Virus record (IMG/VR): IMGVR_UViG_3300037722_001735
Location: 1 to 46,362 of that record
Reading direction: 5' to 3' (one strand)
Length of the DNA: 46,362 nucleotides
Source: a virus
Taxonomy: Duplodnaviria > Caudoviricetes
In this document: one piece after another, positions 2,118 to 39,303 of the stretch
Layout of the letters: each line of letters starts with the position of its first letter
Position numbering within the stretch: the first letter of the stretch is position 1
The notes under the pieces: generated by a model
Databases searched by the model: none
What the model was told of the DNA's origin: nothing
What the model saw: the letters and a program-made list of their open reading frames with translations, nothing else
Translations under genes and position numbers: made by a program

Positions 2118-2473
2118 ACGGCGATCAAACCCTTTCCTTCCGGCTGACGCTCGAAGCCGACATGGGCGCGGAAGTCGCGCGGCGCACCGGGCGATGCCGG
2201 GCAAGGGCGCTGGTCAATGCGGCGCTCGTGGCCTTCTGGATTGTCTGGCTGACTTTCCTCGCCGGGCCCCACGTGCCCGCGCTGGTTCTCCTGGCCGCCC
2301 CGGCGCTGATCGCATCCTCCTCCTTCGAGTGCGTGCGCAACGTCCGCAATCTTGTCGACCTGCAGACGTGCTGGACGAAGTGGCTCGACTGCACGGACCA
2401 TATGGATGCGTTCGTCGCGCAGCTCGAACGCTCGCTGATATCGGCCGACGCCGCGCGCGCGAGGTTCTCATGA
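2114..2473 (+). CDS. Hypothetical membrane protein
   Basis: Two hydrophobic segments (ALVNAALVAFWIVWLTFL, VPALVLLAAPALIA); coupled. Confidence 0.6.
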   Translation: MNGDQTLSFRLTLEADMGAEVARRTGRCRARALVNAALVAFWIVWLTFLAGPHVPALVLLAAPALIASSSFECVRNVRNLVDLQTCWTKWLDCTDHMDAFVAQLERSLISADAARARFS

Positions 2474-4263
2474 CCGGAACGCCGCAACCACCCATTCCCG
2501 ACATTCCCTATCACCCGTGCGCAAACATCATGCCGATGATGGGCGCGGACGACCGCGCCGCGCTCCGCGCGCGCATGCAGCGCGAGGGTTACAACAAGGC
2601 CAAGCCGCTCGTGCTGCTCGACGGCATGCTGCTCGACGGGCGCAACCGCATCGAGGAAGCGCGCTCGCTCGGGCTTTCCGCCTCGGATATTTCCTTCCGC
2701 GTCTTCGGCGAGCCCGACGAAAGCGGTTTCGACTGGTGCGACGGCGACGACCCGCTCGAATTCGTGCTGCGCGAAAACTACGACCGGCGGCACCTGTCGG
2801 TCAGCCAGCGCTCGCTCGTCATGGCGGAGGCCGAAACGCTGCGCCACGGCGGCCGGCGTCCGCCAGCCGGTCAAGATGCAAATTTGCATCTTGACCTTCC
2901 CGGTGCCGCGACCGATGCCCCGGCTGTCCCCCGCGCCGACTTGGCGAAGCGCGGCGGCGTATCGGAGCGCTCGATCGCGACGGCGGCGCAGGTGCGCGAC
3001 CAGGGCGCGCCCGAACTCAAGGATGCGGTGCGCGAAGGCACGGTGACGATCTCGACCGCCGCCGACATCGCGACCCTGCCCAAGGACGAACAGGCGGAAG
3101 TCGTCGCGCGCGGCGAAACGGAAATCCTCAAGAAGGCGAAAGAAATCCGCCAGTCGAAGCAGGCGAAGAAGCATGTGGAGCGCCAGCACAAGGGCGAGGC
3201 GCTCGCCGCCAAAAATCCGGGTCTGCCGGGGCGGCTCTATTCGTTCGCGCTGATCGACGTGCCGCGCAAGCACAATGTCTATGACGACGAGACCGGCTCG
3301 GAGAAGGCGCCGGAGAACCACTATCCGGTGATGAACTTCCGCGAGCTGCTCGACTTCGCGATCGACAGCTTCGTGGCGAAGGACTGCATCATCGCCTACT
3401 GGTCGACGGCGGCTTCGCTGCTCGACGATCTGGAAATCCTCGCCGAGTGGGGCTTCGTTGCGTTCCGGCCGCGCGATGCGAACGGCAAATTGATCCGCGA
3501 CGAAACAGGCGATCCGCTCGTCGCCATTGGCGGTGGGAAGTATGGCTCGCAGCAGGTCTGGCACAAGCGCCGTGCCGGCAAGGCCATGGGTACGGGCCGC
3601 TGGTTCCGCGACCAGCACGAGTTCATGATCTTCGCGCGGCGCGGCGACATTCCCGCGCCGCTGCCCGGCACCCAGTCCGATTCCTGTTTCGACGCCGACT
3701 TCGCCGGCCACTCGGTCAAGCCGCACGACATCGTGCGCGCGCAGATCGACCGCTGCTGGCCGCACATGGAGAAGATCGAAATCTTCGCGCGCGCGAAGCC
3801 GGGCGAAGCCCCGCCCGCCGGCTGGACGTTCTGGGGGAACGAGGCGAGCGCCGCCGAAGCCACGCCCGCGGAGCGGGCCGGCGAGGAGCCGGCGCGAGCA
3901 CCGAAAGAACCGGACACTGCCGAAGCCGCCGATCCGGGCACCCAGGCGGCGGTTGAATTCGCCGATGAACTGCGCACCGAATTCAATGCGTTCGAGGCGA
4001 TCGAGAGCGGCGAGAAAGTCGACGGCGAAATCCTGAACGCATTCCGCCGCCAGCGCTATCTCGTGCCGGGCGGACAGACCCGCATCACTTCGCGCGGCTA
4101 TGCGCGGCGTAACGAACTCGAAGATCGGCTCAATGCGGTCGCCGGTGCCGCTGCGCCCGAGCAGGCCGCCGCCGAAACGGGCGCGGCCACGCCGACGCAA
4201 ACCGAAGACGATCTGGAGCTTCCCGGCTTCCTGCGCCGGACCGGCGAAGGTGCCGGCGCATGA
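2470..4263 (+). CDS. ParB-like N-terminal domain fused to MT-A70-family adenine methyltransferase
   Basis: ATG 2470; LLDGRNR and ENYDRRHLSVSQR (ParB-like); HYPVM, WGF, GTGRWFRDQHE, HSVKP, EIFAR, GWTFWGNE (MT-A70); catalytic DPPW position reads DVPR. Confidence 0.8.
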   Translation: MTGTPQPPIPDIPYHPCANIMPMMGADDRAALRARMQREGYNKAKPLVLLDGMLLDGRNRIEEARSLGLSASDISFRVFGEPDESGFDWCDGDDPLEFVLRENYDRRHLSVSQRSLVMAEAETLRHGGRRPPAGQDANLHLDLPGAATDAPAVPRADLAKRGGVSERSIATAAQVRDQGAPELKDAVREGTVTISTAADIATLPKDEQAEVVARGETEILKKAKEIRQSKQAKKHVERQHKGEALAAKNPGLPGRLYSFALIDVPRKHNVYDDETGSEKAPENHYPVMNFRELLDFAIDSFVAKDCIIAYWSTAASLLDDLEILAEWGFVAFRPRDANGKLIRDETGDPLVAIGGGKYGSQQVWHKRRAGKAMGTGRWFRDQHEFMIFARRGDIPAPLPGTQSDSCFDADFAGHSVKPHDIVRAQIDRCWPHMEKIEIFARAKPGEAPPAGWTFWGNEASAAEATPAERAGEEPARAPKEPDTAEAADPGTQAAVEFADELRTEFNAFEAIESGEKVDGEILNAFRRQRYLVPGGQTRITSRGYARRNELEDRLNAVAGAAAPEQAAAETGAATPTQTEDDLELPGFLRRTGEGAGA

Positions 4264-4508
4264 CGAAGTCGAAGGCACTGCGGCTCCTGACGGAAGCGAT
4301 CCATGCGCGGCCCTGTGATCATTGCGCCGTCGCCCTCGGCGCCGAACCGCGCATTCACTACGCGTTCAAGCAATATCACGCGCGCTGTTTCGTGCTGACA
4401 GGCCTGAAGCCGTCGGTCGACGGCGCGACCATTGTCGGGCGGCTGCTCGCGCGCGCACGCGCAGGCCTGCCGCCGCTGCCACCGAACTTTCGAAGCATGC
4501 CGCTCTAG
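4260..4508 (+). CDS. Hypothetical protein
   Basis: 82 aa, ATGA-coupled, CxxC. Confidence 0.5.
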   Translation: MTKSKALRLLTEAIHARPCDHCAVALGAEPRIHYAFKQYHARCFVLTGLKPSVDGATIVGRLLARARAGLPPLPPNFRSMPL

Positions 4509-4568
4509 CGGCCCCCGCCGGCGGGCCGCCGGCGACAGCGTAACGAGTGAAACCTGGAGGCATGACAC

Positions 4569-5456
4569 ATGAAGCACATGAAACTGTCGACCGCGGACGC
4601 CGCGTCGATCCTGATCAAGAGCGATGCAAGCCTGCCCGCGTTCAAGGCCGCCGGCCGCGCCACGCTCGTCATCCGCGCGGGCACGTCGATCGCCGGAACG
4701 AAATTCGCAAAGGAAACGCCGGTGCATCTGCCCGGCGATCTGGAGCCGGGCGCCGACTATTGCATCTATCTCGGTGACCGCGTGCCCGCGGCCGGCAAGG
4801 CGGGCGCGCGTGACATCGTCATCGGCGGCTTCCACTTTGCGCCGGGCGGCAATGCGCAAGCGCGAGGCGGCGGTGACACGACGCCGCGCATCAATCCGTG
4901 CTCAATCTACGACCTGAATTTCCGCCCGGCATGTCCCGATCCGCGCGGCATGGCGTTCGTCGAGGCGAAGAATTTCTGGGGCGACATCTATCTGTGCGCC
5001 GCGGACCATCTGGAAGGCGGCACGAGCCAGTTCGGCGTGACGATCGCCGACGGCCGCGATCTTCCGCAGGACCCCGCAGGCGGACGCTTCAGGAAATTCG
5101 ATTACGCCTCCGCCTGCGCGGTGATGAAACACCATGGCAAGGGGCTGATGAGCCCGGACGAATTCGCCGCGGGTGCCTACGGCGTCACCGAAAACTCGGC
5201 GTTCGATACGCGCGCGGCAAAGACCGCGCTCGACGCCGCGCGCACCAGCAAATGGGGCTGGATGCAGGCGACCGGCAACAAGTGGGTCTGGGGCCACGAC
5301 GGCAATCCGGAATCGCCGCGCGCTTCCCTCTTTGGCGGCGCCTGGTTCAACGGCTCGCGCGCGGGCTCGCGCTTCGCGTTCCTCGATACCTGGCCGGGGG
5401 TCTCGCGCGCCAATTTGGGCGCGCGCGGGCGCAGTGACCACCTGCAACCTGTCTAG
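4569..5456 (+). CDS. mtd: DGR target 1, Mtd-like protein with C-type-lectin-fold variable C-terminus
   Basis: GGFHFAPGGNA, FRPACPDPRGM, FWGDIYL, GTSQFGVTIADG, HHGK, TSKWG, LFGGAW, GARGRSDHL match recalled BPP-1 Mtd motifs; contains VR1. Confidence 0.9.
   Translation: MKHMKLSTADAASILIKSDASLPAFKAAGRATLVIRAGTSIAGTKFAKETPVHLPGDLEPGADYCIYLGDRVPAAGKAGARDIVIGGFHFAPGGNAQARGGGDTTPRINPCSIYDLNFRPACPDPRGMAFVEAKNFWGDIYLCAADHLEGGTSQFGVTIADGRDLPQDPAGGRFRKFDYASACAVMKHHGKGLMSPDEFAAGAYGVTENSAFDTRAAKTALDAARTSKWGWMQATGNKWVWGHDGNPESPRASLFGGAWFNGSRAGSRFAFLDTWPGVSRANLGARGRSDHLQPV
5316..5438 (+). repeat. Variable repeat VR1
   Basis: 123-nt ungapped match to TR; 15 mismatches, 14 at TR adenines plus one T>G (5340). 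Confidence 0.95.
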
Positions 5457-5475
5457 CCGCCGCGCAAGCGGCGGC
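5456..5475 (+). promoter_or_regulatory. DGR target-recognition hairpin after VR1/IMH
   Basis: GCCGCCGC-GCAA-GCGGCGGC, perfect 8-bp stem with 4-nt loop at the stop codon. Confidence 0.8.
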
Positions 5476-5511
5476 GGCGATCATCCATCGAAACTTCCGG
5501 AGGCATGACAC

Positions 5512-6423
5512 ATGAACAAACAGACCGACGTCCCGTCCGCGGCCATCGAGCCGCATCTCAAGAAAGCCGATCCCAATCTGCCCGCGCTCGTTGCTACCGG
5601 CGCGGCGGCAATCTCGATCCGCGCCGGCACGATTTTCGCCGGCGTGGCGTTCACTGCCGAAACGCCCGTGCGCATGCCCGGTGAAGGGCTTGAGGCGGGC
5701 GCCGACTATGCCGTCGTGCTGCTGGGCAACGATGCCGCCGCGGTGAAGCTCGATGGAGTGCCGTCGGGGGAAACCTGTCTCGGCGGGTTTCACTTCGCGC
5801 CAGGCGGTAACGCGCAGGGAAAATCGGGCGGTGACGACGCGCCCGCCATCAATCCCTTCTCGCTGTGGGACAGGAATTTTCGCCCGGCATGCCCCGACCC
5901 GCGCGGCATGACGCTGGTCGAAATGGCAAGCGGCGCGAAATTCTGGTGCGACATCTACCTGCTCGCCAAAGAGCACCTTCTGTCGGGCACGTCGAAATTC
6001 GCCGTGACGATCGCCGACGGAGACGACGCGCCGCAGGATCCTTCGGGCGGCGATTTCGATGTGCTCGATTTCGAAACCGCCGTCGCCGTGCTCAAGCATC
6101 ACGGCAAGGGCGTCATGGGCGCCGAGGAATTCTTCGCGGCGGCTTACGGCGTCACGGAGAGAACTGCGGCGGGCAGTGACCCCGAACGCACGGGGCTCGA
6201 TGCCGCACGCACCAGCAAGTGGGGCGTGATGCAGGCGACCGGAAACCTGTGGGTCTGGGGACACGACGGACATCCCGACGACCCGCGCGCTTCCCTCTTT
6301 GGCGGCTCCTGGTTCCACGGCTCGTACGCGGGCTCGCGCTACGCGGACCTCGTTTTCTGGCCGGTGTACTCGCCCGGCCATTTGGGCGCGCGCGGGCGCA
6401 GTGACCACCTGCAACCTGTCTAG
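5512..6423 (+). CDS. mtd: DGR target 2, Mtd-like paralog
   Basis: Same motifs as target 1, identical C-terminus LGARGRSDHLQPV; contains VR2. Confidence 0.9.
   Translation: MNKQTDVPSAAIEPHLKKADPNLPALVATGAAAISIRAGTIFAGVAFTAETPVRMPGEGLEAGADYAVVLLGNDAAAVKLDGVPSGETCLGGFHFAPGGNAQGKSGGDDAPAINPFSLWDRNFRPACPDPRGMTLVEMASGAKFWCDIYLLAKEHLLSGTSKFAVTIADGDDAPQDPSGGDFDVLDFETAVAVLKHHGKGVMGAEEFFAAAYGVTERTAAGSDPERTGLDAARTSKWGVMQATGNLWVWGHDGHPDDPRASLFGGSWFHGSYAGSRYADLVFWPVYSPGHLGARGRSDHLQPV
6283..6405 (+). repeat. Variable repeat VR2
   Basis: 123-nt ungapped match to TR; 14 mismatches, all at TR adenines. Confidence 0.95.
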
Positions 6424-6442
6424 CCGCCGCGCAAGTGGCGGC
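6423..6442 (+). promoter_or_regulatory. DGR target-recognition hairpin after VR2/IMH
   Basis: GCCGCCGC-GCAA-GTGGCGGC, 8-bp stem with one G.T pair. Confidence 0.75.
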
Positions 6443-6504: not shown

Positions 6505-6915
6505 ATGACGATTGTCAGGGACGAGAACACGCACACCGAGGCACTGGCGATCGTCGAGAAATACGAAGACTTCAGGAATTATATGTATCCGATCCTGCAA
6601 CGCAGTCCGCGCCATCACGGCATCCTCCGGGACGCGGTGATGGCCGAACTGTTTGCGCCGATCGGCGATCTCTATCACGCGGCGAAAACGCGGCAGGTCT
6701 CGCGGCTCTATGTCTGCGACGGTCGGTTCGCGACGCTGCGTTCGCACCTTCGTTTCCTGGTCCGACCCGACATCAGAATCATGAGCCGGCACCAGCACGC
6801 CGCCGCACTGCGGCTGCTGGCCGAGCCGGGGAAGATGCTCGGCGCGTGGATCAAGAAGCTGAAGGCCAGCAAGAATCCGGGCGAGGAAACTCGCCCGGCA
6901 GGGCGAGCGGGGTAA
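6505..6915 (+). CDS. avd: Accessory variability determinant Avd
   Basis: IVEKYE...YMYPILQRSPRHHG, QVSRLY, LRFL, EPGKMLGAWI resemble recalled BPP-1 bAvd; lies between VR and TR. Confidence 0.9.
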   Translation: MTIVRDENTHTEALAIVEKYEDFRNYMYPILQRSPRHHGILRDAVMAELFAPIGDLYHAAKTRQVSRLYVCDGRFATLRSHLRFLVRPDIRIMSRHQHAAALRLLAEPGKMLGAWIKKLKASKNPGEETRPAGRAG

Positions 6916-6923
6916 ATAGCATG

Positions 6924-7046
6924 CCGCGCGCTTCCATCTTTGGCGGCTCCTGGATCAACGGCTCGAACGCGGGCTCGCGCTACGCGAACCTCGATAACTG
7001 GCCGGAGAACTCGAACGACAATTTGGGCGCGCGCGGGCGCAGTGAC
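6924..7046 (+). ncRNA. DGR template repeat (TR)
   Basis: Adenine-rich copy of both VRs (six AAC and one AAT codons); diverges after AGTGAC (GACCGG in TR vs CACCTG in VRs, IMH*/IMH); followed by a spacer to 7295. Confidence 0.95.
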
Positions 7047-7295
7047 GACCGGATTACGACGCGGCGGCGATCACGGTCCCGCCGGTCTTCCCCGTTCGGT
7101 GTGACCATCGCGTCGTCGCGTGAAGCCGCCGAAGGCGGCGGAGGCCGCGACGCTTTGGCAACCGAGATCAGGTGGTCAGCCCGCCCGTCCTGCTTCGGCG
7201 AACACATTTCGCGGTCCGGCAAAACGGGGCGTAGCGGCGCGCATTCTGCGCCGTCGAGACCCGCGGCCGGCAAATTAATTTCAGGCGGATTTTTC

Positions 7296-8300
7296 ATGAC
7301 GAAGCGCTATCGCAATCTCATTGGCTCGATCGTTTCCGACGACAACATGCGCGAGGCCTATCGGCTCACCGCGCGCGCAAAGCGGCTGACACCAGGCTTT
7401 CTCGCCTTCAAGGAATTCGACGCGCTCAATCTTGCCGAGCTCGCGCAGGACATGAGGAGCGGAGCATACCGGCCGGGCAAGTCGAGCGAGTTCTTTATTC
7501 TCGATCCGAAGCGCCGGCTGATCTCGGCGCTGCCGTTCCGCGACCGCGTCGCGCAGCAGGCGCTCTGTCTTGTTGTCGGGCCGCTGTTCGATCGCGCGCT
7601 GCTGCCGCGCTGCTTCGCCTGCCGGCCGGGCAAGGGGACGCATGCCGGCGTGCGCGCGCTGCAGAGCGACCTGCGGCGCCTGGCGGCTGTGGGGCAGCCG
7701 GTCTATTTCCTCAAGACCGACTTCTCGCGCTACTTCGCATCGATCGAGCTGGCCGCGCTGTGGAAACTGATCGAGGCGAAGATCAGTTGCCGCGGTACTT
7801 TGCGTCTCATCGAAAAAATGGTGCCGCGGCAGGGCATCGGCCTGCCGATCGGCAGCCTCACCTCGCAGATCTTCGCCAATCTCTACACGGGCGCTACGCT
7901 CGACCGGCACCTGCAGCAGACGCTCGGCGAGCGATTCTGGTATCGTTACATGGACGACCTCGTGGTGCTCGGCCACGACGCCGCGCATCTTCGGCGGCTC
8001 AAGGATGAGATCGAGCGCTTCTCGCGCGAGCGGCTGTTCCTGCGTTTCTCGAAATGGCAGGTCGCGCCGGTCAGCCGCGGCGTGAATTTTCTGGGCTACC
8101 GAATCTGGGCGACACACAAACTCCTGCGGCGCGACAGTGTCGTGCGCGCACGGCGCAAGATCGCGGCCTACCGTGCGCGCGGCGACCGCGAAAAGCTTGC
8201 CCGCTTCGTCGGCGCCTGGCTCGGCCACGCAAACCACGCCGACAGCCGCAACCTCATCCGGCACCTCGATCTCCATGCCGAGACGGGAGTGCCGGCTTGA
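7296..8300 (+). CDS. DGR reverse transcriptase
   Basis: ATG 7296, 334 aa; PKRRLISALPFRDRVAQQA, GKGTHAG, LKTDFSRYFASI, GLPIGSLTSQIFAN, YRYMDD, FLGY; no maturase or endonuclease extension. Confidence 0.95.
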   Translation: MTKRYRNLIGSIVSDDNMREAYRLTARAKRLTPGFLAFKEFDALNLAELAQDMRSGAYRPGKSSEFFILDPKRRLISALPFRDRVAQQALCLVVGPLFDRALLPRCFACRPGKGTHAGVRALQSDLRRLAAVGQPVYFLKTDFSRYFASIELAALWKLIEAKISCRGTLRLIEKMVPRQGIGLPIGSLTSQIFANLYTGATLDRHLQQTLGERFWYRYMDDLVVLGHDAAHLRRLKDEIERFSRERLFLRFSKWQVAPVSRGVNFLGYRIWATHKLLRRDSVVRARRKIAAYRARGDREKLARFVGAWLGHANHADSRNLIRHLDLHAETGVPA

Positions 8301-10942
8301 AGACGCTCGACCAATTGGCACCGCTTCAGCCGCGGCGGACCGCGATCGCGCCGGATGCCGGAAGCTATCGCTCATTCCTGGAGGGAAAGATCAAGCTCGC
8401 CTCTTTCGATGGAGTTGAAATCGACGCGGCGGAAATCAATCCGGTGCTCAAGCCGCATCAGCGCGACATCGTCGTCTGGGCTTTGACGGGCGGCCGGCGC
8501 GCGATTTTTGCAGCCTTCGGGCTTGGCAAGACGCTCATGCAACTCGAGATCCTGCGGCTGGTCCGCAAGCATGCCGGAGGCATGACGCTGATCGTCCTGC
8601 CGCTCGGCGTCCGGCAGGAGTTTTTTCGCGACGCGGAACTCCTCGGCCTCACGCTCAAATTCATCCGCTACGACCGCGAAGCCGATGCCGGCGTGGACGT
8701 GCACGTCACCAATTATGAAAGCGTGCTGGACGGCAAGGTGACGCCGCAGGCCTTCACCGCCGCTTCGCTCGATGAAGCTGCGGTCCTGCGTTCCTACGGA
8801 TCGAAGACCTACCAGACGTTCCTGCCGCTCTTTGCCGACGTCCGTTTCCGTTTCGTCGCGACCGCGACGCCATCGCCCAACCGCTACAAGGAGTTGATCC
8901 ACTATGCCGGGTTCCTCGGCATCATGGACACCGGCCAGGCGCTGACGCGCTTCTTCCAGCGCGACAGCACCAAGGCGAACGAGCTCAATCTCTATCCGCA
9001 CAAGGAAGACGAGTTCTGGCTGTGGATGCACAGCTGGGCCGTCTTCGTGCAGAAGCCGTCCGACCTCGGGCATGCCGACGACGGCTACGACCTGCCGCCG
9101 GTGCATGTGCACTGGCACGAAGTGCCAAGCGACCATTCCACGGCCGGCACGGAGCGCGACGGGCAGGGGGCGCTGTTTAGGAACGCCGCGCTAGGCGTCA
9201 CGCAGGCGAGCTCCGAGAAGCGCGACTCGATCGCGGTGCGCGTCGCGAAGATGCGCGCGATCATCGACGCGGAGCCCGGCCGCCACGCCATCCTCTGGCA
9301 CGACCTGGAAAGCGAACGCGACGCGATCGAGCGCGCCGTCCCCGAATCGCAGTCGGTGTTCGGTTCGCTCGATCTCGTGGAGCGCGAAAAACGCATCATC
9401 GATTTCTCGGACGGCAAGTTTGCATTCCTCGCGACCAAGCCGGAACTCTCCGGCTCCGGCTGCAATTTCCAGCGCCATTGCTCGAAGGCGATCTTCGTCG
9501 GCGTCGGCTTCAAGTTCCACGATTTCATCCAGGCGGTGCACCGCATCGTCCGCTTCCTGCAGGTGGAAGCCTGCGACATCCACATCATCCATTCGGAGGC
9601 CGAGCGTGAAGTCGTCGCCACGCTGAAAAAGAAATGGGCGGAGCACGAGCGGCTGACCGCGCGCATGAGTGAACTGATCCGCCGCTACGGCCTCGGCCAG
9701 CATGGCGTGCACGATCAGCTCAAGCGCGCGATCGGCGTCGAGCGCGTCGCGGCGGAGGGCGAGCACTATCTCGTGGCGCGCAACGATGCGGTTGCGGAGG
9801 CGAAGTTGTGTGCGACGAATTCCGTCGGGCAGATCGTCACCTCGATTCCGTTCGCCAACCATTACGAATACACGGCGCAATACGAGGATTTCGGCCATAC
9901 CGACGACAACGGGCACTTCTGGGCGCAGATGGATTTCCTGACGCCCGAACTGCTGCGGATCCTGCAGCCCGGACGGCTTGCCTGCATCCACGTCAAGGAC
10001 CGCGTCCAGTTCGGCAATGTGACCGGCGCGGGCCTGCCGACTATCTCGCCGTTCCACGCCGAGGCGATCTTCCACTATCGCCGCCACGGCTTCGACTATG
10101 TCGGCATGATCACCGTCGTCACCGACGTCGTGCGCGAGAACAACCAGACCTACCGTCTCGGCTACAGCGAGATGTGCAAGGACGCGAGCAAGATCGGCGT
10201 CGGCTCGCCGGAATACGTGCTGCTGTTCCACAAGCCGCAGAGCGACCGCTCGCGCGGCTATGCCGATACGCCGGTCGTGAAGTCGAAAACGGATTACTCG
10301 CTCGCGCGCTGGCAGATCAATGCGCACGCATTCTGGCGCTCGTCCGGCGACCGCCAGCTGACGCCCGCGGAAATGATGACCTATCCGCCGGACGTGCTCG
10401 CCAAGGTGTTCACGGCCTGGAGCCTCGAAGGGCTCTACAATTTCGAAGACCATGTGGCGATCGGCGAGGCGCTGGAAAAGCGCAACGCCCTGCCGTCATC
10501 GTTCATGTCGCTCGCGCCCGGCTCGCACGATCCGACGGTGTGGCACGACGTCAACCGCATGCGCACGCTCAATGGCGAGCAGGTGAAGCGCAATGTCGAG
10601 ATGCATCTGTGCCCGCTGCAGTTCGACATCGTCGACCGGCTGATCCGGCAATATTCGAACGAGGGTGATCTCGTCTACGACCCGTTCGGAGGTTTGATGA
10701 CCGTGCCCTACCGCGCGCTCCTGCTGAAGCGCCGGGGGGGGGCATCGGAACTGAACGAATCCTATTTCCGCGACGGCCTGCACTATCTCGAAGCCGCCGA
10801 ACGGCAGCGCGGCATGCCGGGCCTGTTCGACTTGGAGCGCGCTGCCGAAGCCGCGCCGCCGCAGGCGGCCGGGGAGGCCCCAGCGCGTTCGTGCGAAGGC
10901 GCGCGCGTCACGATCGGCACGCAGCAGGAGGCGGCTGAATGA
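8297..10942 (+). CDS. SNF2-like helicase fused to amino-(N4C/N6A) DNA methyltransferase
   Basis: Probable TTG start overlapping the RT stop; AAFGLGKT, LDEA, ATATPSPN, QAVHRIVRF; C-terminal VTSIPF and VYDPFGG. Confidence 0.85.
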   Translation: MKTLDQLAPLQPRRTAIAPDAGSYRSFLEGKIKLASFDGVEIDAAEINPVLKPHQRDIVVWALTGGRRAIFAAFGLGKTLMQLEILRLVRKHAGGMTLIVLPLGVRQEFFRDAELLGLTLKFIRYDREADAGVDVHVTNYESVLDGKVTPQAFTAASLDEAAVLRSYGSKTYQTFLPLFADVRFRFVATATPSPNRYKELIHYAGFLGIMDTGQALTRFFQRDSTKANELNLYPHKEDEFWLWMHSWAVFVQKPSDLGHADDGYDLPPVHVHWHEVPSDHSTAGTERDGQGALFRNAALGVTQASSEKRDSIAVRVAKMRAIIDAEPGRHAILWHDLESERDAIERAVPESQSVFGSLDLVEREKRIIDFSDGKFAFLATKPELSGSGCNFQRHCSKAIFVGVGFKFHDFIQAVHRIVRFLQVEACDIHIIHSEAEREVVATLKKKWAEHERLTARMSELIRRYGLGQHGVHDQLKRAIGVERVAAEGEHYLVARNDAVAEAKLCATNSVGQIVTSIPFANHYEYTAQYEDFGHTDDNGHFWAQMDFLTPELLRILQPGRLACIHVKDRVQFGNVTGAGLPTISPFHAEAIFHYRRHGFDYVGMITVVTDVVRENNQTYRLGYSEMCKDASKIGVGSPEYVLLFHKPQSDRSRGYADTPVVKSKTDYSLARWQINAHAFWRSSGDRQLTPAEMMTYPPDVLAKVFTAWSLEGLYNFEDHVAIGEALEKRNALPSSFMSLAPGSHDPTVWHDVNRMRTLNGEQVKRNVEMHLCPLQFDIVDRLIRQYSNEGDLVYDPFGGLMTVPYRALLLKRRGGASELNESYFRDGLHYLEAAERQRGMPGLFDLERAAEAAPPQAAGEAPARSCEGARVTIGTQQEAAE

Positions 10943-11020
10943 AACCCGAACTCATTGTCGATCTTTTCGCCGGAGGCGGGGGTGCGTCGCTCGGCATCGA
11001 AATGGCGCTCGGTCGACCGC
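10939..11020 (+). pseudogene. N-terminal remnant of a C5-cytosine DNA methyltransferase
   Basis: MKPELIVDLFAGGGGASLGIEMALGRP (motif I) with no further MTase motifs. Confidence 0.65.
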
Positions 11021-11088
11021 AAGACGGCGAAGGACGTCGCGCGCGAACATATGAGTGGTGTCATGGCGATGCTGCGGAGGGTGCGGAC

Positions 11089-12171
11089 ATGAGCGACAAG
11101 ACCGACATCGGCTGGACCGACGCAACGTGGACGGTTGTGCAGGGCTGCGACCCGGTCAGCCCCGGCTGCGAGAATTGCTACGTGCCGGGCGTGCTCCTCC
11201 GCCTGGCGGGTAACCCGAACCCGAAGATCTCGGGGCCGGTGCAGGGCCTCGCGGAGCGCTACACGAACGCGGCGGGCAAGTCGCGCCTGCGCTTCACCGG
11301 CACAATCGCCCTGCGCCAGGACCGACTGGATTGGCCGCTGCAATGGGCGAAGCCGCGCAAGATTTTCATCCCGAGTCACGGCGATCTCTTCCACGAGGAC
11401 GTGCCCGATGAATTCATTCTGCGAGTGCTCGACGTCGTGCGGCGCTGTTCCTACGACGGCGGGTCGAACTGCGGAAAGATCGGGCGCGGTCATGGCCAGC
11501 ACGAGTTTCAGTTGCTGACGAAGCGTGCGGGGCGCATGGCGGCGTTCATGCCGCGCCTTCGCTTCAACGACAGGGCGGACGAAGAGAAGGGCGAGACCGG
11601 ACTCTATCTCGCGGACGATGGGAAATGGCCAGTCGTGATGAAGAATCTCTGGATCGGCGTCTCCGCCGAGGACCAGGAGCGCGCTGACGAGCGTATTCAA
11701 CTGCTGTTGCAGACACCGGCGGCGATCCGCTTCGTCTCGTGCGAGCCGCTGCTGGGGCCGATTGATCTGATCGGCACGATGGCGCGATGGCAGGACAATC
11801 CGAAACGGGACCGTTCTTGGGTTCGTCTCGGCACGCAGCTGATCAATTGGGTGATCGTCGGCGGCGAGAGCGGCAAGCACGCGCGGCCGATGCATCCGGA
11901 CTGGGCGCGCTCGCTGCGCGATCAGTGCAAGGCGGCAGGCGTGCCGTTCTTTTTCAAGCAGTGGGGCGCTTGGACGCCGGGCGAGAACGTCGAAGGCCCG
12001 GCAAACCGCACGGAGCATGTCGCCTATTGGTTCGTCGATGGGTGGAATTTCGGAAAGCTGACGCCGCGTGAGAGCGATGAGACGCATCGCGATGACGCGC
12101 CCGACGTGTACCGGAGAGCTACGGCTTCCGCCTTCCTCGATGGCGTCGAACACAACGGATTTCCTGCATGA
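11089..12171 (+). CDS. Phage Gp37/Gp68 (DUF5131) three-Cys radical-SAM-like protein
   Basis: GGAGG RBS and ATG 11089; IGWTDATW, GCDPVSPGCENCY, DLFHE, LLTKR, SCEPLLG, WVIVGGESG, PFFFKQWG. Confidence 0.9.
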   Translation: MSDKTDIGWTDATWTVVQGCDPVSPGCENCYVPGVLLRLAGNPNPKISGPVQGLAERYTNAAGKSRLRFTGTIALRQDRLDWPLQWAKPRKIFIPSHGDLFHEDVPDEFILRVLDVVRRCSYDGGSNCGKIGRGHGQHEFQLLTKRAGRMAAFMPRLRFNDRADEEKGETGLYLADDGKWPVVMKNLWIGVSAEDQERADERIQLLLQTPAAIRFVSCEPLLGPIDLIGTMARWQDNPKRDRSWVRLGTQLINWVIVGGESGKHARPMHPDWARSLRDQCKAAGVPFFFKQWGAWTPGENVEGPANRTEHVAYWFVDGWNFGKLTPRESDETHRDDAPDVYRRATASAFLDGVEHNGFPA

Positions 12172-12632
12172 TCTTCGCCGCCATTACTGTCTGGCAGCCG
12201 TGGGCTTCGCTTATCGTGATCGGCGCGAAGCCTTACGAGTTCCGCGGCCGCAAGCCACCGGCGAAGCATGTCGGCAACCGCATCGCGGTTCATGCCGGCG
12301 CCCGGCCGGTCAAGCCAGACGAGATCGTTCAACTGATCCAAAAGCTCGGCGCTCGCGATGTCTGCCTTAAACAAGAGATCGCTTTTCCATTTCTCGAGCG
12401 AGTTCTGGATGGTGAGATCACATTGCCGACCTCGCATGTTCTCGCCACCGCGATCCTCGGAGAAGGAAAGCGAGGCGACGAGTGCGCGCGCGAACTCGGA
12501 ATCGCGATCGGCGGCAACGACTCCGACCGCGAAGGCACGTTCAATTACGGCTGGCCGCTCACGGACATTCAGCCGCTTGTGCCGCCCGTGCCGGCGCGGG
12601 GTTCCCAAGGCTGGTGGAGCTTCACCGCATGA
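12168..12632 (+). CDS. ASCH-domain protein
   Basis: ITVWQPWASLIVIGAKPYEFR, IAVHAG, PVPARGSQGWW. Confidence 0.8.
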   Translation: MIFAAITVWQPWASLIVIGAKPYEFRGRKPPAKHVGNRIAVHAGARPVKPDEIVQLIQKLGARDVCLKQEIAFPFLERVLDGEITLPTSHVLATAILGEGKRGDECARELGIAIGGNDSDREGTFNYGWPLTDIQPLVPPVPARGSQGWWSFTA

Positions 12633-14092
12633 CCACCGGCCGTAAACCGAAACGCACGACCGGGCGGGGCATGTTCCGCGGGCTGCCCCAGACCGGCTAC
12701 GCGCCGCTCGGCCGTCTCTTTCTCCAGGACAAGGAACTGTCCGGCGAGGCGCGCATGGTCGGCGCCTATCTGCTTTCCAAGCCGCAGGGCTGGTCGGTCG
12801 ATATCGACGACCTGATCCGCAATCTGCGCTGGAAGACCGACCGCATCTATCGCTATCTGGCCGAGCTGATCGACCATGGCTATTGCGTGCGCCGCCGCGT
12901 GCAGGGCGAAGACGGCATGTTCGACGGCTCCGAATATGTCGTGGCCGACGTCAAGGAAGCGATCCTGGCCCAGCGGCAGGAATGGATCGAGGCGGGCTAC
13001 AAGTTCTATCCGTCCGATGAGAAGCGCTATGCCGCGCACGAGCAGGAACAGGAGCACGCCGCCGGCGATGCGTCGGCCACCGAAAATTCCGCACCATGTC
13101 GCGTTTTACCGGACACGGTTCAACCGTACACGGTCAAACCCGACGACGTATATAATATAGATAGAAACAAACCTCCCCCCCAAAGCCCCCCCGCAAGCGC
13201 TGCGGGCTACTTCGAAAAGAGAAACGGCGCGGCGCCCGACGCTCCGGCGGCGGCCCCGCTGACGAGCGGAGCGAGCGGCCAGCGGGGCGAACGCGAAGGG
13301 CCGCCGCCATCGCTGGCGCCGCAATCCGAACAGGCCCATCGATCCGCCCCGCCTGCAACCGGCGCACCGCCGACCGTCCCCGACGGCCATGCCGGACAAT
13401 CGTCGACCGTCACGGCAAGCGGCACGGCCGAGGGCCAGCCGAGGAAGGACTTTTTGCAAAATTCGCCGGCCACGCTCCGCCCCGTGACCTTCCTCGACTT
13501 CTGGCGCGAGTACGAGCCGCACAGCGGCAGCCGCCGCGACAAGGCGGTCGATGCCTGGGACCGGCTCGACGCCGACAAGCGGCTGCACGCGTTTTCCGTC
13601 CTGCCGCAATATTTCGGGCACATGGGCAAGATCAACAAAAAGCCGCTGCCCGCATGGCGCTACCTGCGCCTGGGCGCGTTCCGCGATTACGCGCTGCCCG
13701 TGGCGCCGCGCGAGCCGGGCGACGTGGCGGCGCCGGTGCGGCCCGTGCCGCCTTCGTCCGACGAAGTGCTCGCCTCGCCGCTCGGCCTGCGCGCGGCCGA
13801 AGGGCGGTGGGCGCTCGAACTCGTCGAATTCATCGAGCGCCAGCGGCGCTTGCCGGGCGAAGGCGAATGCACCGATCTCGCACGCCGCGGACGCGCGCGG
13901 CATCGCGAACTTCTCGCCGACGAAGCGGCCGTGACAGCGGGCACCATGGTCGCGCCGATGCTGCAGGCACTGCTCGGCAAGCGCCGCATGCTGATCGAAA
14001 AGGCGCTGCGCAAGCACGGCCGCGCGCCGCCTGCGAGCGAAGACGATGGCGGCGGCCTTGAGCCAGAGGACGAACTTGCGGATTTTACGTGA
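12629..14092 (+). CDS. Phage replication initiator (N-terminal HTH, lambda O-like organisation)
   Basis: ATG 12629; LSGEARMVGAYLLSKPQGW...ELIDHGY; internal iterons and AT tract; FLDFWREY C-terminal domain. Confidence 0.7.
   Translation: MTTGRKPKRTTGRGMFRGLPQTGYAPLGRLFLQDKELSGEARMVGAYLLSKPQGWSVDIDDLIRNLRWKTDRIYRYLAELIDHGYCVRRRVQGEDGMFDGSEYVVADVKEAILAQRQEWIEAGYKFYPSDEKRYAAHEQEQEHAAGDASATENSAPCRVLPDTVQPYTVKPDDVYNIDRNKPPPQSPPASAAGYFEKRNGAAPDAPAAAPLTSGASGQRGEREGPPPSLAPQSEQAHRSAPPATGAPPTVPDGHAGQSSTVTASGTAEGQPRKDFLQNSPATLRPVTFLDFWREYEPHSGSRRDKAVDAWDRLDADKRLHAFSVLPQYFGHMGKINKKPLPAWRYLRLGAFRDYALPVAPREPGDVAAPVRPVPPSSDEVLASPLGLRAAEGRWALELVEFIERQRRLPGEGECTDLARRGRARHRELLADEAAVTAGTMVAPMLQALLGKRRMLIEKALRKHGRAPPASEDDGGGLEPEDELADFT
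13108..13171. other. Putative replication origin
   Basis: ACCG-gaca-CGGT (13108) and ACCG-taca-CGGT (13123) at a 15-bp period, then AT-rich TATATAATATAGATAGAAACAAA. Confidence 0.6.
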
Positions 14093-24152: not shown

Positions 24153-24476
24153 ATGCGCCTGATCGACGGCCTTCCCGGCATCTTCAAGGAAACCTTCGGC
24201 GAGGAGACGGTCTACACCCCGAAGGGCGGGGCGCCGAAAACGATCACGGCGATCTGGATCGAGCGCGGCGTCGAAGTCGCCGGCCTGCCCGTGCCGTCCG
24301 ACGGACGCGAGGCCGAATTGCACGTCGACATCGCCGACGTGGCGAGCCCGAAGGAAGGCGACGTCGCCGAGCGCGTCAAGGACGGCAAGACCATGCGCGT
24401 CGTGCCGCCGATCCTGCCCGACGACCAGGGCATGACCGCCTGCACGCTTGAGGACATCGGCGAGGAAGGTTCGTGA
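24153..24476 (+). CDS. Head-tail joining protein (gpFII-like)
   Basis: FGEETVYTP pattern, size and position. Confidence 0.7.
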   Translation: MRLIDGLPGIFKETFGEETVYTPKGGAPKTITAIWIERGVEVAGLPVPSDGREAELHVDIADVASPKEGDVAERVKDGKTMRVVPPILPDDQGMTACTLEDIGEEGS

Positions 24477-26687: not shown

Positions 26688-26694
26688 CGTGTGA

Positions 26695-31693: not shown

Positions 31694-32121
31694 ACACCGC
31701 CTGGGTCGACCGCTACATGACCGTGCCGTTCGTCGAGAAGGGGCGGACGATGCGCGGCGCCGATTGCCTCGGGATCGTTGCGCTGGTGCTCGAGCGCGAG
31801 GCGCGCGCCGCGCTCACGGATCTCGGCGTCGGCTGGTCGGACGGCATCGATGCGATCGCGTTGCGGGTGCAGGAGGCAATCGCGACCGGCGAGTTCATCC
31901 GGCTCGGCCAGGGCGCCGCGGCTGCGAGGTTCGACCTGGTGCAGATGACCAACATTTTTCCGGGCGGCCAGAAGGGTGAACTGCATGTCGGCATCGCGAC
32001 CGGAGCGGGCATGGTGCTGCACTCCGAGCGCCCGCACGGGCCGAAGCACCAGCGGCTCGACGATCCTGCGCTTCGCGGCCGGGTCGTTGCTTTTTGGCGT
32101 TTGAAGGCGCTTGCAGCATGA
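31690..32121 (+). CDS. NlpC/P60 tail-tip protein (gpK-like)
   Basis: GRTMRGADCLGIV, HVGI, VLHS. Confidence 0.85.
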   Translation: MNTAWVDRYMTVPFVEKGRTMRGADCLGIVALVLEREARAALTDLGVGWSDGIDAIALRVQEAIATGEFIRLGQGAAAARFDLVQMTNIFPGGQKGELHVGIATGAGMVLHSERPHGPKHQRLDDPALRGRVVAFWRLKALAA

Positions 32122-34841
32122 GCGTTCATCCGCGCGCGCACCTGTTCGCCCCTGCCGCGATTACCCAAGCATCGGTCGTGGCCGAGTTCCGCCGCACGGT
32201 GTTTTCCGAGCACGGCGAGGTGCTGCCGTTCGCGCCGGGCGCGTCGGTTGCGGACATCGTGACGGCGTTCGACAAGCCGGATGAGTTCGCGACGCACGGC
32301 GTGGTCTTTCTGCGCCGCGGCGAGGGCAAGCCGGTCGAGGTCGCGCGCGAGTGCTGGCACCGGGTAAGGCCGAAGCCCGGCACCGCGCTATTCATTACCT
32401 GCGCGCCGCAAGGCGACGACAGCGGCATCCTCGCGCTCGTGGCCGCGGTTGCGCTCGTGGCGCTCACGGCGTGGGTCGGCGGCGGCGGGCTCGCCTTCGG
32501 CAATCCCTGGCACTATCTCGCGGCGGGCTCCTTCGGCGCCCAGGCGACCGCGGCCGCGGTCGGCGTTGCCGGCGCCGCGGCACTCTCGACGCTTTCCCGC
32601 CCGGTGGTCGGCGCGACCGCCGCCAGCGCGGCCGAGTCGTCGTCGCTCGGCTCGGCCGGCATCACGCAGAACGTCATGGCGGTGAACCAACAGATGCACT
32701 GGCCCGCCGGCACGATGCGCGTTTCGCCGCCGATGCTTTCGCGGCCGTTCACGACGATCGAGGGCACGGACCAGTATGTCTATGGCATCGTCGGCCTGTG
32801 CGGCCCGGTAGAATGGAACGCGCTGCGCGTCAATGAAACGCCGGTCGAGGACCTGCCGGACGGGCAGTTCGAATATGAATTGCGCCGCGGCTTCGACGAC
32901 GACCTGCCGCTCACGCTCGTCAATACCGTCGGCTTCGAGGAAACGATCAATCTCGAAATGTCGAAGCACCGGCTCGACAAGGACAGCGCGACCTTGCTCG
33001 CGCCGGCGACGGCGAGCTACCCGACGCCGAGCGTGCACCGTACGGCGCGCAATCCGGACCGCTTCCGCTTCACGCTGTTCTTTCCGCAGGGGCTTGCGCG
33101 CTTCGACGCCGGCACGGCGATCCTCGCGCCGTTCCGCATCGAAGTGCGAGCGCTCGGGACCGGGACCTGGCGCAAGTTGCCGGAGCTGCATCTCGAGGCC
33201 TCGGTGCGCGCGCCGATGCGGCAGGAGGTGTGGCTGCATTTCGGCGGTGACGAGCAGGCGATCCTGCAGTCGATCTCCGGTGTTACCTCGAGCTGGAAGC
33301 GGTTTTACTCGAGCAACGCGGAATGGGCGGCTGATCCCTATTTCAACGCCTCGCCCGGTGCGGTCGTGGACGCGAATTGCGCGCACACTTATGCCGGCGC
33401 AGATCAGGTTCATATCTGGCTCGACACGGCGGAGTTTCCCGGAGAACGGTACGACATCCGCATCGTGCGCGGCTTCGTGCAGAACGCGGGCGGGCAACAC
33501 ACCACGTCCGTCTATACCGGCGGCCTATTCACGTACCGGGGCGGCTCGGACCCGACGTTCACGATTCCCAACCAGTCCGATTTCGCGGGCTCGGTCGTGA
33601 TCCAGAGCTACACGACGTTCCGCGACGAATATCCATTCCGCAATGTGACGAACCTTGCGCTGATCGCCTTCAAGGGAAAGAACCTGCAGATCAACTCGAT
33701 CAATGCCGAGGCAACGCCGATGATCCCGGTGTGGGATTCCGTGGGCGAAGTCTGGGCGACGCCCGATCCTGACGCGGAGCCGGAATTGCTGCCGGATTGT
33801 TCGAATCCGGCAGCGGTCGCGCGCTATGCTGCGATCGGGCCGTGGAACAAGCGCCCGCGGCCGCAATCGCTGCTCTCGGGCTTCGAGGACTGGTTCGGGC
33901 ATTGCGATGATGAAGCTCTATCCTGCAACGCGGTGATAACCGAAGGCTCGGTCGAGCGCGTGATCAATCTCGCCGCTAACTGCGGCGACGCGGCGATGCG
34001 CGAGAGCGACAGCTTCGGCCCGGTGATCGACCGCGACAGAAGTGCCGATGGAGTGCAGCACGCCTTCTCGGCGCACAACATGACGAGCCCGCTCATCATG
34101 GAGAAGAACTTCGACCGGATTGCGGACGGAATCCTGCCGACCTTCGTGGATGCGAGCCGCGACTATGCCACGCGCACGCTCGAACTGCCGGTCTATGCCG
34201 ACGGCGTCGATGTGTCGGTCGGGCCGCTGCTGGAAGGCGCGAACTATGACGGCCTGGTGTTCGAGGCCAATGTGCGACGGCGCGCGCGGCTCGACCTGCG
34301 GCGCAAGCGGCACCGCGCCACGAAATACAGCTGGGGCACGCATCAGGAGCAACTGATTGCGGTGAACGGCGACATCGTCGCGCTCGCCCACGACACGCTC
34401 TCCGAGACCTACGGTATGGGACGCGTCAAGCACTTCACGACCAAGTCCGGCAATCTGATCGATATCGAGATGAACGGCGGGCTTCTGGACCTTCCGCCGC
34501 CCGTGCAGGACGAACTCTGGGACACCGATCATCTGTTCGTGCGCACGATCGACGAGGACTGGAATCTGGGCGGCCCGGCGCTCGGCGCGCAGGTGCGGCT
34601 TGAGGACAACCAGATCGTCACGGTGCCGCTCTCGGGCGTCGAGGGAAAGCGGCTCATCGTCGAGCAGGGCGAGAGCGGTTTTGCCAAGCCTGACGGATTG
34701 CTGCGAACGTCGCTGATCCATGTCGGCGCGCGCGACCAGGAGAGCCGCCGCGTGATCATCCTGAACATCACGCCGAAAAAAGACTTCGAGGCGCAGATCG
34801 ACGCGGTCGACCTCGCGCCGGAAATATTCGCGGGGTTATGA
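32118..34841 (+). CDS. Tail tip / host-specificity protein (gpI+gpJ-like)
   Basis: About 907 aa; WHRVRPKPG, hydrophobic gpI-like segment, SNPA motif. Confidence 0.8.
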   Translation: MSVHPRAHLFAPAAITQASVVAEFRRTVFSEHGEVLPFAPGASVADIVTAFDKPDEFATHGVVFLRRGEGKPVEVARECWHRVRPKPGTALFITCAPQGDDSGILALVAAVALVALTAWVGGGGLAFGNPWHYLAAGSFGAQATAAAVGVAGAAALSTLSRPVVGATAASAAESSSLGSAGITQNVMAVNQQMHWPAGTMRVSPPMLSRPFTTIEGTDQYVYGIVGLCGPVEWNALRVNETPVEDLPDGQFEYELRRGFDDDLPLTLVNTVGFEETINLEMSKHRLDKDSATLLAPATASYPTPSVHRTARNPDRFRFTLFFPQGLARFDAGTAILAPFRIEVRALGTGTWRKLPELHLEASVRAPMRQEVWLHFGGDEQAILQSISGVTSSWKRFYSSNAEWAADPYFNASPGAVVDANCAHTYAGADQVHIWLDTAEFPGERYDIRIVRGFVQNAGGQHTTSVYTGGLFTYRGGSDPTFTIPNQSDFAGSVVIQSYTTFRDEYPFRNVTNLALIAFKGKNLQINSINAEATPMIPVWDSVGEVWATPDPDAEPELLPDCSNPAAVARYAAIGPWNKRPRPQSLLSGFEDWFGHCDDEALSCNAVITEGSVERVINLAANCGDAAMRESDSFGPVIDRDRSADGVQHAFSAHNMTSPLIMEKNFDRIADGILPTFVDASRDYATRTLELPVYADGVDVSVGPLLEGANYDGLVFEANVRRRARLDLRRKRHRATKYSWGTHQEQLIAVNGDIVALAHDTLSETYGMGRVKHFTTKSGNLIDIEMNGGLLDLPPPVQDELWDTDHLFVRTIDEDWNLGGPALGAQVRLEDNQIVTVPLSGVEGKRLIVEQGESGFAKPDGLLRTSLIHVGARDQESRRVIILNITPKKDFEAQIDAVDLAPEIFAGL

Positions 34842-35778: not shown

Positions 35779-35779
35779 C

Positions 35780-36315: not shown

Positions 36316-36321
36316 TGCGCG

Positions 36322-36384: not shown

Positions 36385-36403
36385 TGATCATGGAGTCCCT
36401 GCC

Positions 36404-37390: not shown

Positions 37391-37401
37391 GAGCGATCTC
37401 A

Positions 37402-39302: not shown

Positions 39303-39303
39303 C

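Follow-up and report, generated by a model that had tools for sequence, protein, structure and literature searches.

Phage DGRs are generally taken as tropism switches, and automatic annotation calls the proteins described here 'tail protein' or 'major tropism determinant'. The present locus raises the question whether this holds for two Mtd-like DGR targets that are encoded among the early genes of a provirus, or whether such targets act inside the cell. The window, by which we mean the whole stretch of 46,362 nucleotides that was analysed, is a 73%-complete provirus record whose first gene encodes an HTH protein (cro-like). Neither cI nor an integrase was found among the 50 window ORFs scanned, which suggests that the cI-integrase arm is not part of the window.

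The DGR cassette

The window holds a genuine and complete BPP-1-type DGR with one TR, two VRs, avd and a YMDD RT (Table 1). The gene order is the mtd-avd-TR-brt order of BPP-1, the nearest phage RT is BPP-1 Brt, and the C-terminal VR, the IMH/IMH* difference and the hairpin are shared as well. Unlike BPP-1, the window has two targets. A preliminary description of the stretch had placed the cassette between two DNA-methyltransferase genes and upstream of the replication initiator and had given target lengths of 295 and 303 aa. All of this agreed with our annotation, with an 82-aa ORF upstream of target A having gone unmentioned. The start of the upstream methyltransferase gene was set from an ATGA overlap and the profile match.

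Table 1. Features of the DGR cassette and of selected neighbouring genes in the window.
Feature	Position	Strand	Details
ParB-like/MT-A70 DNA methyltransferase fusion, upstream flank	2470..4263	+	PF05063 E 2e-8; phrog_21315, phrog_359
82-aa ORF between methyltransferase and target A	4260..4508	+	no Pfam or PHROG match
Target A, 295 aa	4569..5456	+	Mtd beta-sandwich and C-type-lectin fold, without Mtd_N, short beta2-beta3 loop
VR1	5315..5442	+	16/128 mismatches to TR, 14 at adenines
Hairpin 3' of VR1/IMH	5456..5475	+	GC-rich, 8-bp, 4-nt loop; z -3.0, 0/200 shuffles
Target B, 303 aa	5512..6423	+	paralogue of target A, 59-62% identical, same losses
VR2	6282..6409	+	16/128 mismatches to TR, 14 at adenines
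Second hairpin copy 3' of VR2	6423..6442	+	one G-T pair; from sequence
avd accessory gene	6505..6915	+	PF22296 E 1e-22; phrog_3206
TR, 23 adenines	6923..7050	+	differing 3' end (IMH*); no significant hairpin
DGR RT	7296..8300	+	RVT_1, phrog_1423; YMDD intact; 52% identical to BPP-1 Brt
SNF2-like helicase/N6-N4 methyltransferase fusion, downstream flank	8297..10942	+	overlaps RT stop
Replication-initiator-like HTH protein	12482..14092	+	HTH_36, phrog_4221
gpJ-like central tail fibre, without VR	32094..34841	+	phrog_31 E 1e-31

In each VR 14 of the 23 TR adenines were changed, compared to only 2 of the 105 other bases, and VR and TR part from position 7047 on, so that the IMH/IMH* asymmetry is present. 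The two VRs are different, which shows that adenine mutagenesis from TR to VR took place in the past in both targets. Across the clade described below, 92 TR-VR pairs had 1061 of 2159 adenines changed as against 128 of 8881 other bases. By analogy, the hairpin following VR1 would be the DGR target-recognition hairpin; the copy following VR2 is imperfect and its predicted minimum-energy fold favours another pairing. A promoter scan over 16 kb gave one sigma-70-like site, which corresponds to chance level, and none near the cassette. The assembled contigs of one sequencing run match the window without differences and break at the VR ends; small shares of the window were matched in three other DNA sequencing runs, represented by contigs only, and no RNA run was found among the listed runs with window sequence.

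We scanned both strands of the window with adenines as wildcards and found nothing beyond VR1 and VR2 (best other match 0.71, compared to 0.97-1.0 for the VRs), in line with the earlier observation that the tail module is without a VR. The distance of about 28 kb to the fibre genes was also reproduced (28.4 kb to position 34843) and a separate gpJ gene is present, but the naming of the genes at 34843-40613 as fibres is weak, resting on phrog_4900 (E 4e-4), a head-decoration-like match, a PhoD phosphatase and a LamG domain.

Architecture of the target proteins

In both targets the similarity to BPP-1 Mtd begins at Mtd residue 55. For target A the alignment runs from its residue 13 onward and covers Mtd residues 55-378 (E 1e-47), with approximately 40% identity over the sandwich and CLec domains. 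Profiles and a predicted model agree on a fold made up of the Mtd beta-sandwich (mtd_2nd) and a C-type lectin with the VR at the C-terminus, and the top Foldseek matches of the target A model were Mtd (TM 0.78). Mtd_N (PF18454), which is found in BPP-1 Mtd at residues 5-41, was absent from both targets, from the whole window genome and from all 50 clade records searched (positive control: 3/5). On this ground we rejected the idea of a split gene in which the prism is encoded separately. Nor does a fibre domain replace the prism in the window targets. In 135 of 142 targets a start with a Shine-Dalgarno sequence lies at most 25 aa from the sandwich. The targets had been described as lacking a signal peptide; this stood by a hydropathy, Tat and lipobox proxy, which is not equivalent to SignalP.

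The loss of the beta-prism had been put forward as an argument against a role in the virion. The loss is real but weak as an argument when taken alone: it is compatible with use in the virion, because Mtds without the prism are likewise encoded in structural modules (L111, L112, L122, L127 and S-CBS3). A second difference lies in the beta2-beta3 loop, which measures 9 aa in the window targets compared to 27 aa in BPP-1. The stretch equal to BPP-1 310-336 has 8-9 aa in every one of the 128 clade rows, compared to 20-43 aa in each of the 24 outgroup rows. According to the available portion of PMC2408619, Tyr322 and Tyr333 of this loop complete the binding site of the neighbouring protomer and brace the trimer. 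The short loop was also observed in four representatives outside the clade (P0175, P0228, P0260, P0271; 92/157 scored), some of them with long N-termini.

Rare N-terminal extensions resemble cytoplasmic domains (ribbon-helix-helix-like with an atlas score of 0.84, and ProQ), which we regard as a lead only. Fusions of the ProQ, TSCPD-like and ParB kind were found in single records each; an internal Met is present in them, and they may have arisen artificially by read-through. Longer fused forms gave 8 matches of 761-2170 aa, all 38-43% identical. The three that we read have the long loop, and two of these bear collagen and/or T7 fibre domains. Fused forms of 518-760 aa were covered by one separate search only.

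Genome context across relatives

Two trees, which agree on the grouping, place the targets in a large clade of prophages that come mostly from Hyphomicrobiales. The target tree sets 128 clade rows apart from 24 rows including BPP-1 (SH-aLRT 93; 96 for 127 rows), and the RT tree splits 67 rows from 12 virion-type RTs (support 99). Altogether 1043 related proteins were matched, outgroup forms included, and the clade comprises about a thousand. The viral scan behind the survey covered the best 80 of 390 stretches; tail-located clade members could be among the stretches beyond these. The 50,697 isolated-phage records of INPHARED contained no clade member (13 matches, none above 41% identity), and plasmids gave no match to the clade.

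A survey of homologous cassettes had been suggested in the preliminary description, and it showed that the early context is kept across the clade. Of 85 de-duplicated clade loci, 71 have an early marker (regulatory, integrase, replication or methyltransferase gene) no further than 5 kb away and 63 have a methyltransferase no further than 10 kb away, whereas one has a labelled late gene at a distance of up to 3 kb (the labels miss singleton genes). Only 1 of 23 outgroup loci has an early marker; the outgroup Mtds have genes for baseplate, fibre, tape-measure or head proteins as their neighbours. In BPP-1 itself mtd follows a putative tail-fibre gene. Of 87 first targets, 26 begin no more than 30 bp from an upstream ORF on the same strand (median 147 bp); this count depends on crude gene calls that miss small genes and was therefore set aside. 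In the window and 18 near-complete relatives the targets are located 7.7-37 kb from terminase/portal. The tails of these relatives have Mu-type (G001, G022, G048) or P2-type sheaths (G011, G033, G045) or no sheath cluster (the remaining ones), and their heads are lambda- and HK97-type.

It is unlikely, in our estimate, that the targets are accessory virion proteins made in trans, docked on heads or tails via a surface or a small adaptor, and used as auxiliary adhesins or tropism determinants. Several points speak for such a use: the targets descend directly from Mtd, some of the prism-less Mtds in structural modules lie beside 96-122-aa genes (L111, L119, L127), and the avidity provided by a particle suits weak binders. 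The head spikes of gene transfer agents are likewise encoded outside the structural cluster. Wu 2018 (PMC5758913, in the portion available) took all Mtd-type targets as tail proteins. However, the relatives with unrelated tails have no window tail gene in common, each of these genes being found in at most 3 of the 18 relatives by phmmer, which a small, fast-evolving adaptor could escape. The targets are on the strand opposite to terminase/portal in 7 of 19 genomes, and no VR-like match occurred outside the early-arm Mtd genes, and none in structural genes, in any of the 18 genomes with a TR, window included. Furthermore, both the loop and the Bbp4-like gene were lost. The latter, a companion of virion-type Mtds, is present in 22 of 26 outgroup loci (13 outside the seed), BPP-1 and S-CBS3, while it was found in 0 of 99 clade loci and in neither the window nor any of the 18 whole relatives. 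We had also considered the small tail genes of the window as a source of an adaptor and rejected this idea, since they have no homologue in the 18 relatives and no Pfam family. Docking through an adaptor, one of two options in the preliminary description, is thus disfavoured, while its view that the targets differ from classical tropism proteins of the tail tip finds good support in the comparison across relatives.

Possible roles inside the cell

Since the early location persists in prophages with very different tails, the targets likely bind something inside the cell. We see roughly an even chance that they are Mtd descendants exapted as early-made, cytoplasmic binders of host defence or regulatory factors, with tips diversified by the DGR. 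In this scheme a tail-module DGR would have relocated once, in an ancestor, into early operons, and the two trimmed Mtd descendants would be made early in the lytic cycle, stay in the cytoplasm and act there. The oligomer or the geometry of the binding site may have changed after the loss of prism and loop, and the DGR would rewrite the ligand-binding tips of both targets. The putative ligands would be host proteins, most plausibly defence or regulatory factors in need of neutralisation. Gene neighbourhood and analogy are what make a counter-defence role plausible. Mtd binds at micromolar affinity and needs the avidity of the virion (PMC2408619, available portion), which counts against a free protein, as this would lack avidity. 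More tentative, and on balance doubtful, is the wider proposal that temperate phages of rhizobia and related bacteria turned a tail-tip receptor-binding protein into an intracellular DGR binder library that provides adaptive counter-immunity, in which fresh inhibitors of host defence proteins would evolve as needed, for any virion type.

The targets might instead be cytoplasmic sensors or blockers that shield the lysogen or the infected cell from competing phages and mobile elements, which we consider quite unlikely. Several copies of the cassette are located on the cI-integrase arm downstream of cI (L014, L046, L053, L060, L073, L086, L087, L090), as a sensor would suggest, but most copies, the window's included, are on the cro-replication arm. 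As in lambdoid phages, the lysogen is expected to repress this arm. Furthermore, no effector or defence gene was found travelling with the cassette in the neighbour-gene clusters, and PADLOC assigned targets A and B to none of its families. A precedent comes from multicellular bacteria, for whose DGR targets a function as antigen sensors was proposed (Dore et al. 2024, PMC10907252, in the part available); these diversified binders share the proposed role in conflict, but they are encoded by the host and connected with NACHT or ternary systems, whereas the window is without such partners.

It is very unlikely that the targets are soluble lectins which accumulate in the cell, are freed at lysis and act on the surfaces of neighbouring cells, where they might hide receptors from competitors. 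The ancestral binding of surface receptors would fit, and lysis would be the sole exit for proteins without an export signal by our proxy; on the other hand the early-arm location would bring no advantage, free micromolar binders would be diluted and the gene context offers no support. Finally, it is highly improbable that the cassette is a mostly selfish passenger which inserts in early arms and whose targets bring the phage little benefit. Although its position within the early genes varies and some genomes (G015) retain targets without RT or TR, we observed purifying selection (in 10/10 orthologue pairs the N-terminal 220 codons gave dN/dS 0.08-0.37), no stop codon in any of 92 VRs, two or three target paralogues at 39 of 84 loci, YMDD in 77 of 79 RTs and, in phages of Rhizobiaceae, paralogue lineages that are old. 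The VR residues are enriched in Leu, Phe and Tyr and depleted in Thr, Ile and Cys relative to a neutral model that ignores RT context effects, and for this reason the bias was not counted as a sign of selection.

Comparison with reported systems

Outside subscription papers and the supplements of bioRxiv preprints and of Roux 2021, which may annotate these loci, our literature search returned no paper on the early location of the clade or its lost parts. PMC12429752 on Sinorhizobium prophages contains no DGR term, and the available portions of PMC11661182 and 10.1101/2024.10.15.618418 do not cover the location or the losses. Two points were already known: one clade member has been catalogued and a non-structural phage target has been proposed. 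The catalogued member is the DGR of Bradyrhizobium sp. YR681 (PMC5758913, Table ST1 row 220), which is on the same contig as our locus L080. The available part of that paper lists it as a Mtd homologue of class a1 and gives no homologue of phage structural genes for its 20 kb; it takes class a as diversifying tail proteins, and early location and lost parts go unmentioned in that part. The proposed target is the second DGR target of Quimbyvirus, a phage CLec protein remote from the structural genes and near methyltransferases, for which a non-structural role in phage-host conflict was suggested (Benler et al. 2021, PMC8008677). As far as the portion available goes, Quimbyvirus differs in being a Bacteroides phage, in having this remote target beside a structural first one and in that descent from Mtd is not described, whereas in the window phage all targets are in early arms.

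A Mtd-derived clade outside the structural module can be compared in a controlled way with the DGR protein that has been studied best, and the trimmed Mtd scaffold could serve for binder display. Clade members were found in the cultured strains Bradyrhizobium sp. YR681, Mesorhizobium sp. SP-1A and B2-3-4, Mesorhizobium norvegicum 10.2.2 and Shinella pollutisoli KCTC 52677, in which the function of non-structural phage DGR targets becomes directly testable.

The DGR cassette and its Mtd-like targets

A DGR with two targets had been described in the early region of the window, and this observation was confirmed. TR differs from each VR (VR1 in target A, VR2 in target B) at 16 of 128 bases, 14 of them at adenines. 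No further VR was found on either strand of the window, and this two-strand scan bears out the earlier remark that no VR-like sequence had been noticed in the tail module. VR1 is followed by a GC hairpin (z −3.0), and an imperfect copy of the hairpin lies 3' of VR2. Targets A and B have an identical ribosome-binding and start region (4557-4573 and 5500-5516) and hence the duplication took in the translation signal.

Features of the DGR cassette and its surroundings (window coordinates unless a locus is named)
Feature	Position	Strand	Remark
ParB/MT-A70 methyltransferase			flank before target A, 82-aa ORF between
Target A	4569-5456	+	
Target B	5512-6423	+	
avd	6505-6915	+	
TR	6923-7050	+	
RT	7296-8300	+	
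Helicase-methyltransferase fusion			flank on the other side
Replication-initiator-like gene	from 12482		beyond cassette
BPP-1 bbp4	L129:11641-11889		uncharacterised 82-aa family, across loci L101-L128

The alignment with BPP-1 Mtd begins at residue 13 of target A and spans Mtd residues 55-378. The AlphaFold model of target A had a mean pLDDT of 82.5, with low values across the VR, and Mtd structures were the only matches to it at E <0.001 (TM 0.78). The cassette is a genuine DGR member, Mtd-like in fold and mutagenesis. Pfam found mtd_2nd in the targets but not Mtd_N (PF18454, the N-terminal beta-prism), which it detected in BPP-1 Mtd, and so the prism domain is absent as the preliminary description had suggested. 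No Mtd_N was found in the window genome or in any of 50 records of related phages, of which 22 are ≥90% complete; in 3 of 5 control records the search was positive.

The provirus is 73% complete (CheckV), with a lambda-like head and a gpJ-type tail without a sheath match. Its main genes are all on the + strand, beginning at an HTH (cro-like) gene, and the cI-integrase arm appears to lie outside the window. The host is likely to belong to the Hyphomicrobiales, judging by the terminase, whose nearest isolated-phage relative is Sinorhizobium phage phi2LM21 (48%), and by the genera of the named target homologues (Bradyrhizobium, Rhodopseudomonas, Rhizomicrobium and Pseudolabrys).

A clade of early-arm relatives

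The homologue search returned 1043 proteins, and most of the best 120 were ~300 aa long. We fetched 125 loci from three sources (6, the best 80 of 390 stretches, and 52), a sample biased to close relatives by the choice of the best 80. In the target tree (152 rows, quick method, midpoint root; 14 duplicate or fragmentary loci and matches <200 residues left out) one branch parts 128 rows, hereafter the clade (SH-aLRT 93; 96 for 127 rows), from 24 outgroup rows including BPP-1, S-CBS3 and P12026. The RT tree (FastTree) separated 67 RTs of the clade from 12 of virion type with a support of 99, and YMDD was kept in 77 of these 79.

For 92 of the 124 targets, spread over 63 of the 84 de-duplicated loci, a clean TR was obtained; the other targets had cut contigs, indels or no TR within the stretch. 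In the 92 TR-VR pairs, 1061 of 2159 adenines are altered compared to just 128 of the 8881 non-adenine positions. No two of the 92 VR peptides are alike and none contains a stop. Two or three targets were present in 39 of the 84 loci, some of them separated from the RT by several kb or situated on the opposite arm. One related phage (G015) has two targets and avd with no TR or RT. The prophages at L086 and L087 keep one or two targets, and the stretch analysed shows neither RT nor TR.

The gene clusters beside the cassette are cI, cro, cII, integrases, methyltransferases, ParB-like proteins, sliding clamp, HD phosphatase, primase and DUF5131; the last occurs in its vicinity in 35 of 125 loci. 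With 17 duplicate loci excluded and singleton genes unlabelled, 71 of 85 clade loci versus 1 of 23 outgroup loci had an early marker at ≤5 kb, and one of the 85 clade loci had a labelled late gene at ≤3 kb. Most outgroup Mtds adjoin baseplate, fibre, tape-measure or head genes (PHROGs) or bear fused fibre domains.

For the whole-genome comparison we used 18 of the 22 near-complete records. Their heads are lambda-type or HK97-type; sheaths are Mu-type in G001, G022 and G048 and P2-type in G011, G033 and G045. The remaining genomes showed no sheath cluster. The targets lie 7.7-37 kb from the terminase or portal gene, and 7 of the 19 genomes (window included) have them on the strand opposite to it.

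Loss of the loop and of bbp4

The preliminary description was right about the prism, but missed two further losses. The stretch equivalent to BPP-1 310-336 measures 8-9 aa in 128/128 clade rows and 20-43 aa in 24/24 outgroup rows. Among the 92 of 157 cluster representatives that could be scored, 18 had a short loop; 14 of these were clade-like and four, some of them long, were not. Tyr322 and Tyr333 sit on this beta2-beta3 loop, which extends into and supports the adjacent protomer's binding site (Miller et al. 2008, PMC2408619), and prism and sandwich promote the obligatory Mtd trimer (Handa et al. 2019, PMC6328139). As the bracing loop is shortened and the prism lost, the oligomer or the site geometry of the clade is likely to differ from that of Mtd.

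The second loss is that of bbp4. Homologues occur in BPP-1, S-CBS3 and 22 of 26 outgroup loci (9 seeds, 13 non-seeds), accompanying virion-type Mtd even at loci without RT, but none was found in the 99 clade loci, the 18 whole relatives or the window. At L105 the homologue is fused to DUF4376. The family is a candidate fibre-assembly helper for virion-type Mtd; our literature search found no paper with the term bbp4.

The targets fail to show three virion-Mtd features that we tested: a prism or fibre domain, the beta2-beta3 loop and a location in the structural module.

Possible roles of the targets

The most economical account would be that a tail-module DGR moved once, in an ancestor, into early operons of temperate phages of the Hyphomicrobiales, after which the virion-display parts would have been lost and the target often duplicated. 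Lambdoid early arms carry host-takeover and counter-defence genes. Given this and the methyltransferase neighbours in 63 of 85 clade loci, we see about an even chance that the targets are made early and bind host defence or regulatory proteins in the cytoplasm, and the non-virion readings taken together are probable. In 135 of 142 clade targets the distance between a Shine-Dalgarno start and the sandwich is at most 25 residues. A hydropathy proxy for export signals weakly flagged 4 of 120 homologues, with no Tat motif and one lipobox-like match. Three clade targets (P0073, P0086 and L082:3549-3749) have an N-terminal extension resembling ribbon-helix-helix proteins (atlas score 0.84, no Pfam match), which is a lead only, and a rare extension in another target resembles ProQ; both hint at a cytoplasmic role. 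One homologue (P0268, single record, possibly a chimera) consists of a SciP-like DUF1153 N-terminus and, joined to it, a clade target's C-terminal half. The micromolar affinity of Mtd, whose binding depends on virion avidity (PMC2408619), counts against a free cytoplasmic binder.

Alternatively, the targets could be a virion accessory made in trans, which we consider unlikely. The loss of the prism, on which the preliminary description had partly based its argument, is real but says little by itself because prism-less Mtds also occur in structural modules: 3' of a tail fibre and its chaperone (L112), behind baseplate and fibre genes (L127), near a terminase gene (L122) and behind the capsid gene (S-CBS3). 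These and the Mtd of L111 keep the long loop. The latter (L111:9461-11041, Parvibaculum indicum) belongs to a DGR located between the terminase and portal genes, where a 122-aa gene precedes it, and is perhaps a head-displayed form. No VR-like sequence was found outside the early-arm Mtd genes in 18/18 genomes having a TR. Each tail protein of the window, including the candidates at 34843-40613, recurs in at most 3 of 18 relatives, though a fast-evolving adaptor could escape this comparison.

A sensor against competing phages seems quite unlikely; sensor roles have been proposed for cellular DGRs (Dore et al. 2024, PMC10907252). That the targets are lectins set free by lysis is very unlikely. 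Least probable is a passenger, and dN/dS was 0.08-0.37 across the N-terminal 220 codons in 10/10 orthologue pairs.

The idea of non-structural phage DGR targets is not new. Benler et al. 2021 (PMC8008677) propose one as second target of Quimbyvirus, in a defence-related island, and Roux et al. (10.1101/2020.04.01.020958, PMC8144416) describe viral targets of their clades 1, 4 and 6 as mostly structural, with a kinase-bearing exception. For prism-less gut-phage targets a receptor-binding role is still supposed (Baykov et al. 2023, PMC10743442). Wu et al. 2018 (PMC5758913) catalogue a Bradyrhizobium YR681 member of our clade as an Mtd homologue without structural neighbours, in a class interpreted as tail proteins. 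Our search found no paper on the Mtd-derived early-arm clade. Its ancestry, its specific losses, the fact that it is not tied to one tail type and the existence of cultured carriers put the question into a clear, testable form.

Other genes of the window

The DUF5131 gene (10939-12171) matches the PADLOC candidates PDC-M41B and PDC-M30B; its first 27 codons resemble the start of a C5-methyltransferase and are probably a remnant. The head-closure and tail-terminator genes are separated by four genes (24473-27423) that possibly modify the virion or host surface: a weak ATP-grasp-like gene, a Methyltransf_24 gene and a pair of glycosyltransferase-like paralogues (phrog_1962). Within the tail module, a PhoD-like phosphatase (37719-39302, E 6e-15) has an N-terminus that by eye resembles that of the adjoining ORF at 39304. 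At the right end we found a HigB-like toxin and HTH antitoxin pair (45717-46362, − strand), and a similar pair is present in the related phage G006.
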